Assembly (NCBI GenBank): GCA_045863315.1
Contig: BTUX01000001.1
Span: 6,611-70,610, forward strand
DNA length: 64,000 bases
Reading direction: 5' to 3'
DNA from: Candidatus Hydrogenedentota bacterium
GTDB lineage: Bacteria; Hydrogenedentota; Hydrogenedentia; Hydrogenedentales; SLHB01
Part shown: piece after piece, positions 3,118 to 33,158 of the stretch
Layout: every line of letters starts with the position of its first letter
How positions within the stretch are numbered: the stretch's first letter is position 1
Notes under the pieces: model-generated
Databases searched by the model: none
What the model was told of the DNA's origin: nothing
The model's input: only the letters and a program-made list of their open reading frames with translations
Made by a program: the position numbers and the translations under genes

Positions 3118-6100
3118 CTACCCAAGCTCATGCCTCCGCGAGAGGTAGTACAGAATCGGCACCGTCATGCGCGACAGCAACAGCGAAGCAACTTCACCCG
3201 CCATGAGCGAAATCGCCAACCCCTGAAATATCGGATCGAAAAGGATTACCGACGCCCCCACCACGACCGCCGCCGCCGTCAGCATCATTGGCCGAAAACG
3301 CACCGCGCCCGCATCGATCACCGCTTCGGCCAAAGGCATGCCTTGTTGCAGGCGCAACTCGACGAAGTCGACCAGGATGATTGAGTTGCGCACGACGATG
3401 CCCGCACCCGCAATAAAACCAATCATCGACGTCGCGGTGAAGAACGCCCCCATCAGCCAGTGCGCGGGCAGAATCCCTACCAGCGAAAACGGAATCGCCG
3501 CCATAATCACAAACGGCGTCTTCATTGACTGAAACCACCCCACCACCAAAATGAAAATCAGCACCAGCACGGCGGCAAAGGCCAGACCCAAATCGCGAAA
3601 CACTTCAATCGTGATGTGCCACTCCCCGTCCCACTTCACCGCAAACTTCTCGGCGGAAAACGGCTGGCCGGCCGAATACTGCTCGATACCGTAGCCCTCC
3701 GGAATCTCGAGCTTGCCCACAGCATCCATCATCGAAAGAATGACGTACACGGGGCTCTCCGCCGTCCCGCCGACGTCGCCCGTCACGTACACCACCGGCA
3801 TGAGGTTCTTGTGGTAAATGCTCTTGTCCTGAATCGTCTCTTCGATGCGAACAAGCTCGCCGAGCGACACAAGATCGCCTTGTGCGCCCTCCACTTTGAT
3901 GCTCTTCAGCCCTTCCAGATTCGACCGCTGCCCTCGCTCAAGACGCACGAAAATCGCCACATCTTCCTTCTCGTCCGGCATATGCACGAGCCCCGCGCCC
4001 ATCCCGCCCAATGCGATTCGGAGAGTCGCTGAAATCCGGTCCACCGACACGCCGTTGAGCGCGGCCTTCTCCTGGTCGATCTCGAAACGGTACTTCGTTT
4101 GATCGTCTTCGACGTACCAATCCACGTCTACCACGCCCTCGACTCGCTCGAACACATCGAGGACCTGTCGCGCAATCTCGATTTGCCGCTGGTAGTCTGA
4201 CCCGTAAATCTCCGCGACCAAGGTCTGCAACACCGGCGGGCCCGGCGGCACCTCGGCTATCTTCACGCGCGCGTTGTGGCGCTTCGCTATCGCCTGCACC
4301 TCCGGCCGCACGCGCTTGGCAATATCGTGACTTTGGGCATCGCGAGCGTCCTTCGACGCCAGGTTGACTTGGATGTCCGCTACGTTGGGTCCGCTACGCA
4401 AAAAATAGTGCCGCACAAGTCCATTGAAGTTGTGTGGGGAAGCAGCGCCAACGTACATCTGATAGTTGGCCACTTCCGGAACCTGGCGGATGTAATCGGC
4501 GATTTCGCGGGTGACCGCCGCGGTTTCCTCCAGGGTCGTTCCTTCGGGCATATCAATAACGATTTGAAATTCGCTCTTGTTGTCGAACGGCAGCATCTTC
4601 ACCAGCACACGCTGCAGCGGGACCAGCGCGCAGGCCGCGAACAATAGGAGCAGGACCAGCCCGAGAAATCCGTATCGCACGGGCGCATGAAGGAGCAACG
4701 GGCGCATTACGCGCCGGTACACTCGGTCCATCCAGTTTTCGGAATGTCCGTGTCCGCTCGTTGACGCCGGTTTGCCCTTCAGCAGCCGCACCGCCGCCCA
4801 CGGCGTGACAATGAACGACACAAACACGGAAAACACCATCGCCGCCGACGCCCCCACGGGAATCGGCTCCATGTACGGCCCCATCAGCCCCCGCACAAAC
4901 GCCATCGGCAATATCGCCGCGATCACGGTGATCGTCGCGAGCAGCGTCGGGTTGCCGACCTCGTCCACCGCCTCGACCGCCACCTCGTTCCTCGACATCG
5001 ACGCGCTTTCGGGCAGCGCGTAGTGGCGCACAATGTTCTCGACCACCACGATGGCGTCGTCGACCAGAATGCCGATCGAAAAAATCAGCGCGAACAAGGT
5101 CACGCGGTTGATCGTGTAGCCGTAGAAATAGAACACCACGAGGGTCAGCGCAAGCGTGACCGGGATCGCGATGGCGACCGTGCCGGACTCGCGAATGCCG
5201 AGCGTCAACGCGATCAAGATCGACACCGACACAACCGCAAGCAACATGTGGTACAGCAGTTCGTTCGATTTTTCCTGGGCGGTCTCGCCGTAATTTCGGG
5301 TCGCCGTGACGAGCACCCCGGACGGCACCACCTTGCCGCCAAGCTCGCGCACCTTCTCCATCACGGCGTGCGCCACTGTCGTCGCATTGGTGCCTTTGCG
5401 CTTGGCGACCGAAAGCGTCACGGCGGGTGTAGGCTCGTTGCCCGAATGCAGATTCTCGTCGGACCCCAACACGTCATGACCGCCCGGCCCTGACCCTCGG
5501 CCATAGAAGACGTAGTCCACCGGCTCCTGCGGTCCGTCCACGATATCCGCCACATCCCGCAAATACACGGGTTTTCCCTCGTGCACACCGACGACTACGC
5601 TGCCGACCGCTTCCGTATCGGCGAGAAAGCCGCCCGTCTCGACCAGAAACTCGCAGTTGTTCGAGGAAAAGCTCCCCGAAAGCACCTGTTGATTGGCTTG
5701 CGTCAGCTTCGAGACGACGCCCGCGGGCGCCACGCGGTACGCCGCCATCTTCACCGTATCGAGCACGACCTGCGCCTGTCGCCGCTGCCCGCCGATGATC
5801 TTCACCTCGGACACGTTCGGCACTTCCTTGATCGCATCGTGCAATTGCGCGGCGATCCGGCGGAGCATGTAGTGGTCGTACTGCGCGCTGGCCAGCGTCA
5901 ACGCGAGAATCGGCACGTCATCGATCGAACGCGGCTTGACCAGCGGCTCGCTGCCGCCCGGCGGGATCAAATCGAAATTCGCGAACAGCTTCTGGTTCAG
6001 ACGCACAATCGCGTCTTCTTCGTTCTCGCCCACGTAGAACCGCACAACGGTCATCGACTGGCCCGGACTCGACGTCGAGTAAATGTACTCGACGCCCGGA

Positions 6101-27619: not shown

Positions 27620-28255
27620 TCAAAAGAGACCGAGGCGGGCGTATGCGTCCACCTCGACTTCCGCTTGCCAGTCGATGGGCGAGTCGGGAGCCGTGCCTGC
27701 GGCCTGGATCAGCAACTTGGGACAGCCCGTGCCCGGCAAGGACTCGTTCTCGCGTATCAGTTCGAGCAAATCGACGCCCGATCGCGGTTCTATCTCGATC
27801 GCATCCCCAAAGCCGCTAAGGGAGAATGCCCCGCCAAGATTCACGCGGCCAAGTACGCCCCCCGATCTCGGCACAAAGTAAAGTTGAATGGCCTTGACGT
27901 TGCGGAAGTCGCCGCGGTCCGCGCGAATGACTGTAGTCCGAAGTTGGACGCGGCTGAGTCGCACCACGCTGCTCAGGTCAATGTTCCCCGCGACCCGGAA
28001 CACGTCCGTCAACTGGTCTTCAGTCGGCAGGTTGCACAGATCCTGCTCGACCGAGCCGGCCAGCAGCGGCAGATTGGCGTCATTCGCGAAAACCGACGGA
28101 TCCATCGTGCCCGCGCCCATGGGGATCGCAAAGGAGATCGGCCCAATTTCCAGACCGTTCTTGACGCCGCAGCCGGCTGCCAGCGCCGCCGCGAGGAGAA
28201 CCAAGATCACGAGGCGCATTAGATTACGCTCCACACTCTCCGTATCCATTGCCAT
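27620..28255 (-). CDS. Hypothetical lipoprotein
   Basis: Signal peptide with lipobox LAAGC; true start is possibly Met at 28219. The overlapping plus-strand ORF 27416-28222 is Arg-rich and not protein-like. Confidence 0.5.
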   Translation of the reverse strand: MAMDTESVERNLMRLVILVLLAAALAAGCGVKNGLEIGPISFAIPMGAGTMDPSVFANDANLPLLAGSVEQDLCNLPTEDQLTDVFRVAGNIDLSSVVRLSRVQLRTTVIRADRGDFRNVKAIQLYFVPRSGGVLGRVNLGGAFSLSGFGDAIEIEPRSGVDLLELIRENESLPGTGCPKLLIQAAGTAPDSPIDWQAEVEVDAYARLGLF

Positions 28256-28415
28256 TCCCGCACCGCTTCAGGTAGATTCGAGGGGCTCCACCGACGATAC
28301 AACCGATTCGGGGCAGTATTACGCGGAAATCCCGCAAAATTCTCGGTTTGAACAGGTTACACGGTGCGTCCGACCGGCTGTCGGGGAGCCGTGCCGCGTG
28401 CCCCACGAGCTAACT

Positions 28416-30116
28416 ATGACCAAGAAAGAAGTTGCCGCCGTACTCGAAGAAATCGCGATCCTGCTCGAACTGTGCGGCGAAAATCCGTTCAAGGCCCGCT
28501 CTTATCAGAACGTGGCGCGGGCGCTCGAGCAGCATGAGGAAGACCTGGACACGCTCGTGCGCGAAAAGCGGCTGCGGGAAGTCAAAGGCGTCGGCGACGC
28601 CCTGGAACAGAAAATCGAGGAACTGGTCACGACGGGAAAGCTGGGCTACCACCAGGAGTTGAGGGCCAAGTTTCCGGAGACGCTTTTCGAAATGTTCGTA
28701 ATACCGGGCCTCGGCGCAAAACGGATAAAGACCTTGTATGAAGACCTGAAGATTCAATCGCTGGGGGAGCTCGAGTACGCGTGCCGGAAAGGAAAGATCG
28801 CCGGACTGAAGGGGTTTGGCGAAAAGATGCAGCAGAAGATTCTTGAGGGCATCGCGTTCTCCAAGAAACACCAGGGACTGTATCTATTTCACAAGGCCCT
28901 CGAAGAAGCCACCCGGCTCCGGGAATGGATTGAGAAGGACAAGGCGGTCATCCGGATCGAGGTCGCGGGCAGCCTGCGCCGGCGAAAGGAAGTCGTGAAG
29001 GACATCGACATCGTTGCCTCGTCGAACAAGCCCGAGACCCTGATGCGGCGGTTCGTCGGGGCCGAAGGCGTGGAACGGGTCACCGGCCACGGCGAAACCA
29101 AATCGAGTGTTGTGCTCAAGTCGGGCATGGCGGCGGATCTGCGCGTCGTCACCGCTGCCGAGTTCCCCTATGCGCTCCACCATTTCACCGGCAGCAAAGC
29201 ACACAACGTCGCCATGCGGCAGCGCGCCAGAGACCTCGGTTTGAAAATGAACGAGTACGGTTTGTTCCGCGGCGACACCTTGATCAAATGCAAGGACGAG
29301 CGCGCGCTATTCAAGGAATTGGGTCTGCCGTTCATTCCTCCGGAACTGCGCGAAGACATGGGCGAACTCGAGTTGAACACGGAGCCGGCGCTTGTCGAGC
29401 GAACGGATCTCGTCGGCCTGATCCACTGTCATACGAACTACAGCGACGGCGCCGCCACCGTCGCGCAGATGGCCGAAGCCGCTAAACAGGAGGGTTACCA
29501 ATACCTCGTGCTGGCCGATCACAGCCAGAGCGCCGCCTACGCCGGCGGGCTCTCGCCCACGACGGTAAAGAAACAGCACAAGGAGATCGACGCGATCAAC
29601 TCCAAGATGAAAGGCTTCCGGATCATCAAAGGAATCGAATCGGATATCCGCGCGGACGGGTCGCTCGACTACGATGAGAGCATTCTGAAATCGTTCGAGG
29701 TGATCATCGCGTCGGTGCACAGCGGGTTGAACATGTCCGAAGCCGACGCGACGCGACGCGTCGTGAAGGCGATTGAAAACTCCTATACCACAATACTGGG
29801 GCACCCGACCGGACGCCTCCTGCTCATGCGCGAAGGGTACCCGCTGGATTACGAAAAGGTGTTTGATGCTGCGGTGGCCAACCGGGTGGCAATCGAGATC
29901 AATGCCAACCCGCACCGCCTCGACCTTGATTGGCGATACATCAAGCGCGCCCGCGACAAGGGCGTCATGTTCAGCATTGGACCGGACGCGCACAGCGTGG
30001 AAGGCATTGCGGACGTTCAATTCGGCGTGGGCATCGCGCGGAAGGGATGGCTTGCGCCCGAACACCTTCTGAACGCGATGACCGCGCAGCAACTCCTCGC
30101 ATGGAAGACGCGCTGA
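28416..30116 (+). CDS. polX: DNA polymerase X family protein with C-terminal PHP phosphoesterase domain
   Basis: N-terminal Pol-beta-like HhH and palm regions (GSLRRRKEVVKDIDIV) and a C-terminal PHP domain (HCHTNYSDG...ADHSQSAAY). Start at ATG 28416 (MTKKEV). Confidence 0.85.
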   Translation: MTKKEVAAVLEEIAILLELCGENPFKARSYQNVARALEQHEEDLDTLVREKRLREVKGVGDALEQKIEELVTTGKLGYHQELRAKFPETLFEMFVIPGLGAKRIKTLYEDLKIQSLGELEYACRKGKIAGLKGFGEKMQQKILEGIAFSKKHQGLYLFHKALEEATRLREWIEKDKAVIRIEVAGSLRRRKEVVKDIDIVASSNKPETLMRRFVGAEGVERVTGHGETKSSVVLKSGMAADLRVVTAAEFPYALHHFTGSKAHNVAMRQRARDLGLKMNEYGLFRGDTLIKCKDERALFKELGLPFIPPELREDMGELELNTEPALVERTDLVGLIHCHTNYSDGAATVAQMAEAAKQEGYQYLVLADHSQSAAYAGGLSPTTVKKQHKEIDAINSKMKGFRIIKGIESDIRADGSLDYDESILKSFEVIIASVHSGLNMSEADATRRVVKAIENSYTTILGHPTGRLLLMREGYPLDYEKVFDAAVANRVAIEINANPHRLDLDWRYIKRARDKGVMFSIGPDAHSVEGIADVQFGVGIARKGWLAPEHLLNAMTAQQLLAWKTR

Positions 30117-30805: not shown

Positions 30806-31507
30806 ATGCCTGAAACCGCCCCGTCGAGCGGGAACCGGTCCGCATACTTTATCGTTTCGTATGTGGCGGTGGTCCTCCTGATCGACGCGCTCGCAACCAA
30901 CCGCGTCCACTGGGACCTCGACCTCGGCGTCGTGCAATGGTCAATCGAGTGGCGAAACTTCATGTGGCGTCACGATGACCAGTTCGACTCGTTCAAGTTT
31001 GTCCTCTGGTTGGTCGTTCCGTTCGCCTACAGCCTCGGTTCGGGGATGGACTGGGGCTACTTCGGCTTCGGGCGGTGGAAAAAAAACGATCTCCTGCTGC
31101 TCGCAGGCTTGATCGTCCTCGGCGGGCTGGCGGTCGGCGCCATCGCGTTCATCCCCGCGCTGCGCGAGTATTATCCTTCTCAGCGCGCGCTCTCGTGGCA
31201 TTCGAAGAACAAACTGCTCTACATGCAGTTGATGTGGAACCTCTCGTGGCTTCCGGGTTGGGAGTTCCTGCACCGCTATTTCCTGCTCAATGCCGTCCAA
31301 TCGCGTTGGCCGCGGTTCGGCTGGGTCCTTGTCCCTGTCGCCGAGGGACTCTACCACCTGCAAAAGCATTGGACGGAAATGCTCGCCATGGTCGCCGCGT
31401 CCGTCTTTTTCACGCAGTGGACCATGCGCCGCAAGAACTTGATGCTCCCGTTCATCGTCCACGCCGCTGTCGAGTTGGGCCTGGCCGCATTCCGAATTCT
31501 GGTGTAG
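30806..31507 (+). CDS. CPBP-family (CAAX protease-like/Abi) intramembrane protein
   Basis: Multi-TM protein with EFLHR, GLYHL and HAAVE motifs consistent with the CPBP EExxxR/FxxxH/HxxxN pattern. Confidence 0.5.
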   Translation: MPETAPSSGNRSAYFIVSYVAVVLLIDALATNRVHWDLDLGVVQWSIEWRNFMWRHDDQFDSFKFVLWLVVPFAYSLGSGMDWGYFGFGRWKKNDLLLLAGLIVLGGLAVGAIAFIPALREYYPSQRALSWHSKNKLLYMQLMWNLSWLPGWEFLHRYFLLNAVQSRWPRFGWVLVPVAEGLYHLQKHWTEMLAMVAASVFFTQWTMRRKNLMLPFIVHAAVELGLAAFRILV

Positions 31508-31864
31508 GTAGGCGCAGCGGGGCCGCGGCGGTTGCCTTGCATGGTCGGCGGCCTACAGATTCGCCTGGACTCGCTTACGAAGAACATTGAGGCGTTCAGC
31601 AAGAAGTTTCGGGTGGTGAACCCGCAAATGCATTTTCAGCCACCGATACACACCGATGAACACCGATGGCCGAGGGGCCGTGGTCGGTCCGTGTTGGTGT
31701 TTCCGTGGCTCGAGTGGATGGTTCGCGCGGCGCGCAGCGCGGCAGACCGCAGCCCCTCAGAACGCGGGCGGGCTGAACACAGCGCCCGCACAACGGCGCA
31801 CAGCGCGACAGGAGCGCAACCGGACGGAGAGCAACCGGACCGATCACAATTCGACAAAGCACAG

Positions 31865-32276
31865 CGCCCGCCCCCTCTGTCATTCCGAAGCGAAGCGAGG
31901 AATCTGGGTATACCGAGGACCACGTGCCCGCACACGACCGACACTATTACGTGTACATTATGGCCAGCCTATCCAAGGTCCTGTACGTGGGAGTGACGAA
32001 CAACCTTGACCGACGCGTATACGAACACAAGCAAGGCCAAACGCCCGGTTTCACGTCGCGCTACAAAGTCAACCGCCTTGTGTACTTCGAGGTGTTCAAC
32101 GACATCCGGTACGCGATCATGCGCGAGAAACAGATTAAGTCTTGGCGAAGGGAAAGATTGCGTTGATCAAGTCGCAGAACCCCTCCTGGTCCGATCTGTC
32201 GGCGGCAGACGACGGCTGAGTGCCGAAGCAGATTCCTCCTTCGCGAAGCGCGCCGTCGGAATGACAGGCGGGGGCG
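31865..32276 (+). mobile_element. GIY-YIG mini-element: 80-aa GIY-YIG gene bounded by about 45-bp imperfect terminal inverted repeats
   Basis: Left end CGCCCGCCCCCTCTGTCATTCCGAAGCGAAGCGAGGAATCTG (31865-31906). Right end is its inverse complement with a differing central segment (32229-32276). The enclosed ORF is 31924-32166. Confidence 0.4.
31924..32166 (+). CDS. GIY-YIG nuclease family protein (small, UPF0213/YhbQ-like)
   Basis: HYYVYIMAS...LYVGVTNNLDRRVYEHKQG...EKQIKSW matches the GIY-YIG core, including the Arg and Glu. GTG start. Confidence 0.75.
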   Translation: MPAHDRHYYVYIMASLSKVLYVGVTNNLDRRVYEHKQGQTPGFTSRYKVNRLVYFEVFNDIRYAIMREKQIKSWRRERLR

Positions 32277-32398
32277 TTCTTAAGGGTCGGTAAGGCTCGG
32301 TCGTGATACCGCTGCAGTCGAGGACAAAGTCTGATGCGCGAGTATAATCAGATACTGCGCGTCTATCCCGCATGGTGCGCGACTGCCCTCTGCCATAC

Positions 32399-32463
32399 CG
32401 CCCGCCCCTTCTGTCATTCCGACGCGAAGCGAGGAATCCGGGCGAACCGAGAACCCCGTGCCC
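32399..32463 (+). repeat. Solo direct copy of the GIY-YIG element left end (about 88% identical over about 60 bp to 31865-31929)
   Basis: Direct alignment of the two stretches. The downstream frame is degenerate, with no GIY-YIG ORF. Confidence 0.6.
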
Positions 32464-32646
32464 CCTGGCGTTCGGTGTTCGCCTTGTACGCTGTGGTCAT
32501 CGCATCGTTCTATCGTGGCGCTTACGACGGGCGATAGACACGTTCAGCACGAGGTATCGAATCGTGAACCCGTCGTGGCGTACGGCATGGCGCAGCGTGT
32601 TGCGGTCTCCGCCGCCCGTCTTCCGCGACAGGCGGCGCTATCCCGC

Positions 32647-32828
32647 ATTTCTCACCAGTCGCTCCCGATGACGGGAGCGACTGGTGAGAAATGCTCAGGA
32701 GATAGCATAGAAGTCAATCGGGTGAGGATTTTTCACACCAACAGCCCGTTTTCCCTGTGGCTGCATAAAGGTATGTGACGCACGAAGCTGTATCCTTCAT
32801 TGCCCGCGGGTGCGAAAAATCCGGGCTA
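32647..32828. repeat. Long copy of palindromic repeat element (hairpin core + 136-bp insertion + CCGGGCTA)
   Basis: Same 20-bp stem hairpin as 13911. About 95% identical to 47814-47995. Ends immediately at the stop codon of the minus-strand Rieske gene. Confidence 0.75.
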
Positions 32829-33158
32829 TCACTCTTCTTCCACCGGAAGCAACGTGATGTAAATGTCCTCTCCTTCGACTTTCAAGCCGTACCGCCTCAG
32901 CCGGGTGGACTCGTGCGTGAGGCACTCTCCCGTGCGGACGTTGTAGACCCAACCGTGGCGCGGGCAGGTCACGATGTCGCCGTCGAACCGGCCCGTCGTG
33001 AGGTCCCAGTTTTGGTGCTTGCAACTGATTTCCGTGGCAAAAAAGGACCCGTCCGGGTCGCGGAAGACGGCCACGTTTCTCGCTAGCAACTTGAATTTGC
33101 GAAATCGTTGCCCCTCAAAGTCCGAGGTCTTGGCAATCTTGACGTACTGCCGCTCCAT
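32829..33158 (-). CDS. Rieske [2Fe-2S] domain protein
   Basis: 109 aa with CKHQ...CPRHG cluster ligands. The track ORF extends to 33644 but that part overlaps the FHA-GGDEF gene; start placed at ATG 33158 (MERQYV). Confidence 0.7.
   Translation of the reverse strand: MERQYVKIAKTSDFEGQRFRKFKLLARNVAVFRDPDGSFFATEISCKHQNWDLTTGRFDGDIVTCPRHGWVYNVRTGECLTHESTRLRRYGLKVEGEDIYITLLPVEEE

Follow-up and report, generated by a model that had tools for sequence, protein, structure and literature searches.

Ssn proteins are single-domain GIY-YIG proteins (CDD cd10448) that bind a cognate hairpin repeat only as single-stranded DNA (ssDNA) and cut a few nucleotides (nt) upstream of it (Chenal et al. 2025, Nat Commun, PMC11893778). 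In Neisseria, where SsnA restricts incoming transforming ssDNA, the repeat is called NTS (CGTCATTCCCGCGMAVGCGGGAATCYRG); such repeats carry the general name Ssn-related motifs (SRMs) and lie near 71% of ssnA homologs, on both sides of the gene in 42% (PMC11893778). The authors of that study remark that a hairpin-gene-hairpin arrangement resembles an insertion sequence (IS), and they draw a parallel with repetitive extragenic palindromes and their associated tyrosine transposases (REP/RAYT) (PMC11893778). Here, we analyze a locus in a 64,000-nt stretch of contig BTUX01000001.1 (assembly GCA_045863315.1; hereafter, the window) from an uncultured Hydrogenedentota bacterium, a host whose name is absent from the main text of PMC11893778. 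The locus contains a small GIY-YIG gene and three copies of a hairpin motif. It is a real feature and a slightly decayed copy of the kind described in 2025: very likely a member of the Ssn family, made up of a small single-domain GIY-YIG nuclease gene and its cognate SRMs.

Recognition by SsnA has been mapped in Neisseria, and this provides the terms of the comparison. In N. meningitidis (Nm), binding depends most critically on the C just after the palindrome, cleavage is governed by the three bases preceding the palindrome, and the substitutions Y6A, Y17A, and E64A in Nm SsnA abolish cutting (PMC11893778). Altering the palindrome sequence while keeping the hairpin costs the Neisseria enzyme its activity, and Ssn homologs cut at differing offsets (PMC11893778). 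In the literature library searched, no paper was found to contain the exact motif 25-mers, and searches for COG2827 and UPF0213 returned nothing relevant.

An ssn-type gene in a shifted frame

The open reading frame (ORF) at the center of the locus (31924..32166, + strand) has 80 codons and a GTG start codon whose position agrees with that of the ATG of the intact ortholog in L001, a syntenic locus. The start is preceded by a Shine-Dalgarno (SD)-like GAGGA (31915..31919, +), 4 nt away. The Pfam GIY-YIG domain (PF01541, E = 3e-16) spans residues 8-77, no further domain was found, and within the window there is only one copy of a GIY-YIG gene. The protein is 100% identical to P0001, from a Candidatus Hydrogenedentota metagenome-assembled genome (MAG).

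In PMC11893778, a protein counted as a homolog if BLASTP against Neisseria SsnA gave E < 1e-10 and a query coverage of 75% or more. For this comparison we used the 94-aa N. gonorrhoeae ortholog rather than Nm CAX49033.1. The closest relative of the window protein, the intact ortholog P0002 (99 aa, 90% identity), matches a single locus in an N. gonorrhoeae chromosome (tblastn E = 2e-16, 91% coverage, 7.3-Gb database); the 94-aa protein encoded there has Y6, Y17, and E64, is surrounded by nine NTS copies in 3.3 kb, and matches the description of SsnA. With the gonococcal protein as the reference, P0002 aligns over residues 5-89 (85/94; 90% coverage) with 47% identity and 78 bits, which lies within the published definition, and the window ORF over residues 5-72 (68 residues) with 47% identity and 65 bits. 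Y11, Y21, and E68 of the window ORF align with Y6, Y17, and E64 of SsnA and are the catalytic equivalents, invariant across the family alignments. The likeness to Ssn thus covers the single GIY-YIG domain, a length of ~95-100 aa in the intact form, and the catalytic Tyr/Tyr/Glu set. The gonococcal ssnA locus (L300, NZ_CP119140.1 1880757-1884041; also in NZ_CP119142.1) is unannotated in the distributed gene table, and PLSDB files complete N. gonorrhoeae chromosomes (2.17 Mb) and other multi-megabase records as plasmids.

The original prediction described an 80-aa GIY-YIG gene, and while the domain assignment holds, the ORF is apparently a frameshifted version of a gene of ~99 codons. Relatives of the protein are 91-110 aa long. 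P0002 continues with ..WRREKKVALIKAQNPSWSDLSAVDDG, whereas the window ORF ends after ..WRRERLR, the frameshift falling after about residue 77. The missing C-terminal tail is found in another frame (32151..32219, +), which encodes ..IALIKSQNPSWSDLSAADDG* with its stop codon at 32217-32219; it was recognized by comparison with P0002 and L001 and by the family hidden Markov model (HMM), of which it covers positions 75-92 (E = 2.9e-7). In the alignment, the hairpin-gene-hairpin unit is 412 nt long in the window versus 416 nt in L001, and at the frameshift site L001 reads GGGAGAAGAAGGTCGCG where the window reads GGGAAAGATTGCG, so that a net deletion of 4 nt, near 32153-32157 of the assembled sequence, shifted the frame. 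The 4 nt could have been lost inside a short AAG/GAAG repeat by replication slippage. In the family alignment, the lost segment holds several nearly invariant residues along with N87 and W90, which are invariant. AlphaFold models the intact ortholog as a single compact domain with a predicted local distance difference test score (pLDDT) of 87, and the lost helix (residues 76-86) is modeled with a pLDDT of ~94. Since the deletion removes a conserved and confidently folded helix, the window gene, as assembled, is probably impaired, and the locus is probably decaying or inactive.

Could this gene be something other than an ssn, with unrelated repeats adjoining it by coincidence? A free-standing homing endonuclease of the I-TevI type would fit the GIY-YIG domain and a weak match to TIGR01453 (group I intron endonuclease, E = 0.0075); a housekeeping nuclease of the UPF0213/YhbQ type would fit the fold search, in which the closest solved structures are UPF0213 BH0048 of B. 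halodurans (PDB 1ZG2) and the Slx1 nuclease domain, and in which no solved Ssn structure appeared. Yet the TIGR01453 match scores 16 bits against a cut-off of 56, there is no DNA-binding extension and no intron or intein context, PHROGs returned no match, and the neighbors are chromosomal genes. Enzymes of the I-TevI family resemble the window protein in the type of catalytic domain only; they have a long linker and DNA-binding domains, cut double-stranded DNA, and occur in introns or as free-standing genes of phages, and none of this was found here. UPF0213 proteins (including the E. coli YhbQ type) and the Slx1 nuclease domain belong to the same branch of the GIY-YIG fold, but the similarity is distant (E = 1e-5, with 25-28% identity in structural alignments) compared with 47% identity to SsnA. 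No cognate hairpin repeats are known for UPF0213 or Slx1, and Slx1 needs Slx4 and acts on branched double-stranded DNA. Coincidence, finally, is at odds with the roughly 16-fold association between repeat and gene among relatives that is described below. We consider a homing or UPF0213-type nuclease extremely unlikely, and the homing unit that had been suggested for this locus finds no counterpart in it. PADLOC and NCBIfam, like PHROGs, gave no informative match for the nuclease.

Hairpin copies and the motif variant they define

The gene lies in a 1.3-kb intergenic gap (31507-32829) between a gene for an Rce1-like membrane protease (+, ends at 31507) and a Rieske-domain gene (-, ends at 32829), and this gap contains one recognizable gene and the three motif copies. 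The 5' SRM occupies 31865..31907 on the + strand (core 31879-31904), with the SD-like site 10 nt and the start codon 17 nt downstream. The 3' SRM lies inverted at 32229..32276 on the - strand (core 32231-32265), 10 nt past the restored stop codon. Both were identified by direct reading, a repeat finder, and a core search. The latter two methods also identified a third, solo copy with its leader, SD-like site, and GTG (32394..32463, +; core 32413-32438). In a relaxed search, the core GTCATTCC..GGAATC occurs exactly three times in the 64 kb; a search with the 26-nt core and up to 3 mismatches returns only the two direct copies, versus 0 expected from 100 shuffles.

Inverted ends with an ORF between them were already part of the original prediction, and the repeat finder agrees on their placement. 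The left end (31865-31906) reads CGCCCGCCCCCTCTGTCATTCCGAAGCGAAGCGAGGAATCTG, and its inverse complement recurs imperfectly at the right end (32229-32276), the inverted arms being 18 nt long with 89% identity (31871-31888 and 32256-32273). The palindromic center claimed for the right copy is present as well, its longer interior containing CTTCGCGAAG. As for the term terminal inverted repeat, the shared sequence is real, but it consists of a conserved 5' flank and the two halves of a hairpin stem, and the interiors differ.

The 5' SRM is built from a conserved G+C-rich 5' flank, GTC, a 5-bp stem (ATTCC/GGAAT) enclosing the interior GAAGCGAAGCGA, and then CTG. The copy on the - strand has in common with the + copies the flank CGCCCCCGCC, then TGTCATTCCGA, and GGAATCTG; the interior, at 21 nt versus 12 nt, is longer and forms a small hairpin of its own within the same GTC + ATTCC..GGAAT + C frame. 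The reading GTC-ATTCC..GGAAT-C is common to all three copies, which continue with TGG, CGG, or TGC. The determinants mapped in Neisseria (GTC on the 5' side and C on the 3' side of the palindrome, and an oriented, nonpalindromic flank) are therefore kept in every copy. GTC, palindrome, and C are also found in NTS (CGTCATTCCCGCG..CGCGGGAATCYRG), with which our motif has identical outer determinants, GTCATTCC...GGAATCYRG. The outer part of the hairpin is identical to NTS, with the inner stem replaced: the window motif has a 5-bp outer stem and an interior of 12-21 nt (of the GA + GCGAAGC + GA type or a nested hairpin), whereas NTS has a perfect 9-bp stem and a 3-nt loop. The arrangement also differs. 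The copies flanking the window gene are inverted, 5'(+) and 3'(-), whereas the NTS detected within ~100 nt downstream of gonococcal ssnA are all direct (+), one regex-positive inverted copy lying ~220 nt downstream. A 26-mer identical to the 5' copy is present in a Chloroflexia MAG (L057). The heptamer d(GCGAAGC) is reportedly a classic, unusually stable DNA mini-hairpin, studied by Hirao and colleagues in the early 1990s; such stability would suit a motif that is obliged to fold in ssDNA.

The solo copy is part of a 70-nt direct repeat (31860-31929 and 32394-32463, 86% identity) that spans the G+C-rich 5' flank, the hairpin, the SD-like site (GAGAA in the solo copy), and the GTG start codon. 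The solo copy represents a partial tandem duplication in which the 5' hairpin and the leader, forming the 5' end of the unit, recur. The original prediction had recognized this direct copy and described a degenerate frame behind it. The copy stands, and extends to the ribosome-binding site and start codon; the coding remnants are without statistical support in tblastn and in a family HMM search at maximum sensitivity. We had also entertained a decayed second or third GIY-YIG gene, after the solo copy or upstream at ~31586, and dropped it, the traces having E = 0.02-0.5 in a one-sequence search space.

The association of motif and gene extends to relatives. We searched 80 metagenomic loci (proteins 54-70% identical) with a core defined by the recognition determinants, GTCAYYYY..RRRRTC. 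A motif lies within 400 nt of the gene in 53/80 of them (66%) and on both sides in 35/80 (44%), fractions that are close to the published ones. Motif density is 1.97 per kb near the gene versus 0.12 per kb further off, a difference of about 16-fold. The strand bias reproduces the geometry of the window, with 5' copies on the + strand by 51:16 and 3' copies on the - strand by 45:16. The consensus of the instances is YTGTCAYYCYGAGCGNAGCGARGRRTCTS. Their interiors range from GAGCGAAGCGA to long nested hairpins like that of the 3' copy in the window, such interiors being common among SRMs of relatives. The outer stem occurs as ATTCC/GGAAT, ATCCT/AGGAT, ACCCT/AGGGT, ATCCC/GGGAT, and ATTTC/GAAAT. 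In a wider count, its arms are complementary in 159/163 instances (among them TTCT/AGAA, 106; TTCC/GGAA, 36; TCCT/AGGA, 7; CCCT/AGGG, 4; TCCC/GGGA, 4) and noncomplementary in 4. The support for a hairpin comes from this covariation across copies, since the folding of single copies is uninformative: as RNA, they are no more stable than shuffled sequences (z from -1.8 to +1.7). The belonging together of the repeats and the gene, and the description of small GIY-YIG genes as multicopy and repeat-associated, both part of the original prediction, are thus borne out by the Ssn/SRM system.

Several observations weigh against the assignment to Ssn. The published SRM pattern, HGTCWYN(0-2)YYVSBRHN(0-5)WNVSBRGN(0-2)RNCYNB, which is sought within 500 bp on both sides of the gene, has 0 matches in the whole window, though the NTS consensus is matched by it, and it matches only 2/80 of the relatives' loci; the motif described here is hence a variant not covered by that operational definition. 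Taken alone, the window ORF covers 72% of SsnA, just below the required 75%, a shortfall due to the frameshift. All three motif copies found in the 64 kb are at the gene, with no sign of a Neisseria-like expansion. Finally, the loss of activity upon changes to the palindrome implies that each Ssn may be specific for its motif, in which case the details of cutting would not be transferable. As regards the first of these points, the homologs L192 (60% identity) and L200 (54%) have perfect-stem, pattern-positive SRMs in the same 5'(+)/3'(-) arrangement, so that a single protein family spans a gradation between the motif types.

Alternatively, the hairpins could be ordinary cis-regulatory structures, an attenuator in the 5' leader and a 3' terminator, with no link to the nuclease. 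Their placement is suggestive in this respect, with one copy 10 nt before the SD-like site and the other 10 nt past the restored stop. Overlap of the 3' copy with the stop codon is frequent among relatives (offset -23) and explains protein ends such as ..DPSLRSG in P0102. However, neither hairpin is followed by a T-run, a terminator scan misses both, and the RNA folding scores given above offer no help to this explanation. Conservation across phyla goes beyond structure and includes the unpaired GTC and C, and 118/120 motif loci listed from other genomes (see below) have no ssn-like gene within the 8 kb fetched. No Rfam family matches at gathering thresholds anywhere in the window, and a permissive scan of 31500-32850 yields only chance microRNA-type matches on an unrelated perfect hairpin. 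A purely regulatory role is, in our judgment, very improbable, and we retain the reading of the hairpins as SRMs of an Ssn.

Locus history and motif doublets in other genomes

A different question is whether the unit moves. In addition to being an Ssn, the hairpin-gene-hairpin unit could be, or recently have been, an autonomous IS-like or RAYT/REPIN-like mobile element (REPINs being inverted REP doublets), with the GIY-YIG protein mobilizing both the unit and the motif doublets described below. Its IS-like architecture, on which the Ssn authors also remarked (PMC11893778), speaks for this, as do the presence of exact motif 25-26-mers in many bacterial phyla among the matches listed and the predominance there of inverted doublets with the geometry of the gene flanks, some of them within extended outer inverted repeats.

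To trace the history of the locus, we compared syntenic regions. L001, with ~89% DNA identity, has the same gene order (PolX-Nth-Rce1-like-ssn) and an intact gene, with one 5' SRM and two tandem inverted 3' SRMs (5311-5435), between which the last ~15 nt of the gene are duplicated. Its contig ends at 5560 inside a third, diverged GTCATTCC, which may be an assembly break at a repeat. In other Hydrogenedentota, the gene is absent after the orthologous Rce1-like gene. L202 is 84% identical across that gene, and the similarity stops exactly at its stop codon, beyond which there are other genes and no SRM. In L203, L205, and L206, where the neighboring protein is only 55-58% identical, a convergent 270-aa gene lies 61 nt after the Rce1-like gene, and there is no ssn. 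The unit is thus not universal in the lineage, which likewise speaks for mobility. Relatives without the gene differ across the whole downstream region, however, so these presence/absence differences, identified through homologs of the upstream Rce1-like gene, provide no clean junction and no clean empty site.

Several observations argue against mobility. No target-site duplication is present at either boundary, neither in the window (flanks ...aaagcacag|CGCCCGCC and CGGGGGCG|ttcttaagg) nor in L001 (...ggaaggcag| and |tggtctttg). The unit occupies the same syntenic position in the two genomes, ~89% identical in DNA, and the window has a single copy of the gene. No transposase, integrase, or recombinase is found at the unit, whose only protein domain is a bare nuclease with no known strand-transfer activity. 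The flanking hairpins are predicted to be cut on opposite strands, unlike in IS200/IS605 excision, in which both ends are on the same strand. Visible local changes take the form of tandem duplications, in each of which a hairpin is copied along with a piece of the adjacent gene end: the 5' hairpin and leader in the window, and the 3' hairpin and the last ~15 nt of the gene in L001. This, too, could be read in favor of a mobile unit. On balance, we find the mobile element improbable; of the signs by which the original prediction proposed to recognize one, no target-site duplication and no clean empty site turned up.

Just upstream of the 5' hairpin there is a 15-nt tandem pair (GGAGCGCAACCGGAC x2, 31811-31840), and the same place in L001 (4708-4940) has a tandem array of ~230 nt with periods of 15, 45, and 60 nt, that is, a length-variable minisatellite. 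A 39-nt direct repeat (77% identical) lies upstream of the unit (31586-31624) and again after the solo motif (32534-32572); the upstream copy is conserved in L001 (~4545-4585), and both copies translate as F-S-x-[KR]-[FY]-R-[VI]-V-N-P, with a faint and nonsignificant likeness to GFTSRYxVxRLVY of the nuclease. An imperfect hairpin of short repeats (cacaccgatgaacaccgatgg..ccgtggtcggtccgtgttggtg) occupies 31640-31700, one arm of which pairs with 32460-32480 (21 nt, 81%), and a similar short-period repeat (gacaggattaacaggattgacaggatg) is found at ~1030-1060 of L202, in an unrelated intergenic region. Upstream of the solo copy, 32321-32348 (+) holds the only sigma-70-like match in the 1.45 kb scanned (AGGACA, 16 nt, TATAAT; 10/12). 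Positions 32645-32694 form a perfect inverted repeat of 23 bp with 4 nt in its loop (GCATTTCTCACCAGTCGCTCCCG atga CGGGAGCGACTGGTGAGAAATGC), which separates the solo motif from the Rieske stop codon; it has no T-run after it on either strand and is the source of the chance microRNA-type Rfam matches. The neighboring genes are chromosomal (PolX, Nth, and Rce1-like, with Rieske on the other side). The PolX-type ORF (27888-30116; HHH_8/DNA_pol_B_thumb/PHP in relatives) has 742 codons versus 566-567 aa in relatives, so its first ~175 codons are probably untranslated.

An exact-match scan of species-representative genomes with GTCATTCYGA(N)GCGAAGCGARGAATC returned at least 120 stretches. The matches listed come from Nitrospirota, Acidobacteriota, Chloroflexota, Planctomycetota, Bacteroidota, Firmicutes, Cyanobacteria, Patescibacteria, Campylobacterota, and other phyla, with none from Hydrogenedentota among these 120. 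An Ssn-like gene is present in the 8 kb fetched for only 2/120 of them, and most motif copies among the matches listed therefore lie away from the gene. A stem-complementary core occurs 255 times in these loci versus 2 in a shuffled control. Neighboring motifs there form 72 (+,-), 17 (-,+), and 10 tandem pairs; the inverted (+,-) doublets have gaps of 15-45 nt, are mostly gene-less, and have the geometry seen around the gene. The motifs are mostly intergenic, 38% lying inside long open frames that cover 86% of the DNA of the listed loci. In L017, L031, L035, and L064, doublets sit inside a longer inverted repeat (..CAGGCTGCGGAAAAA.. / ..TTTTTCCGCAGCCTG..); these nested doublets come from several Acidobacteriota MAGs and one Saccharimonadales bin and resemble a miniature inverted-repeat transposable element of ~130 nt. 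Among 2.9 million viral contigs, both the motif (49 stretches) and close homologs of the protein (about 15) are rare; phages are not the main home of either.

These patterns invite comparison with two mobile systems. REP/REPIN-RAYT systems likewise consist of short, dispersed, mostly intergenic hairpin repeats, often in inverted doublets, with an enzyme gene flanked by inverted copies; such doublets predominate in the listed loci of other genomes, and the gene flanked here encodes a GIY-YIG protein rather than an HUH/Y1 transposase and shows no sign of mobilization. IS200/IS605 elements have a small gene bracketed by hairpins that are recognized as ssDNA, but there a Y1 transposase cuts and rejoins ends that share one strand, whereas here the hairpins are inverted, only a nuclease domain is present, and no target-site signature was seen. 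One speculative scenario is that SRMs of the GA-GCGNAGC-GA type form a REPIN/RAYT-like system, in which hairpin(+)-ssn-hairpin(-) would be the autonomous form and gene-less (+,-) doublets the nonautonomous one, spread or maintained by Ssn-dependent cleavage of ssDNA, with the window as a decaying master copy. We think this unlikely, though less so than autonomous mobility of the unit itself.

Predicted cleavage and what the locus implies

Under the Ssn reading, which we prefer, the mechanism would follow that of Neisseria. When the region becomes single-stranded, during replication, DNA uptake or transfer, or possibly transcription, each motif would fold. An active Ssn would then bind the extruded hairpin in ssDNA through the stem sequence, the 5' GTC, and the 3' C, and would cut only the strand carrying GTCATTCC..GGAATC, a few nt upstream of the hairpin. 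Extrapolating from the 37-nt versus 28-nt oligonucleotide substrates used for Neisseria (PMC11893778), we predict a cut ~3 nt upstream of the base preceding GTC, that is, a few nt 5' of TGTC. This would place the cuts near 31874/31875 (+) for the 5' copy, near 32408/32409 (+) for the solo copy, and near 32269/32270 (-) for the 3' copy, positions that are uncertain by a few nt given the differing offsets of Ssn homologs. With cleavage confined to the motif strand, the + strand would be cut at the 5' and solo copies and the - strand at the 3' copy; at both copies flanking the gene, the cleavage side would thus face outward. By this analogy, the repeats would be recognition hairpins of a site-specific ssDNA nuclease, and not transposon ends in any demonstrated sense.

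The window by itself carries little weight, since its locus is a single, frameshifted member and thousands of homologs are reported for the family, but it adds a new host phylum and a hairpin variant to the known Ssn kind. The wider comparison is more informative. It suggests that the published motif pattern is too narrow, for it misses the motif type that flanks a large clade of homologs, and counts of SRMs per genome obtained with it may be underestimates outside Proteobacteria. The comparison also suggests that inverted doublets have the gene-flanking geometry in common: the dominant gene-less doublets are arranged as the copies around the gene are, with the predicted cleavage sides outward, a match that sharpens the REP/RAYT analogy and makes it testable. 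Finally, the varied natural interiors set on a fixed GTC-stem-C frame offer raw material for the choice of enzyme/site pairs in ssDNA tools.

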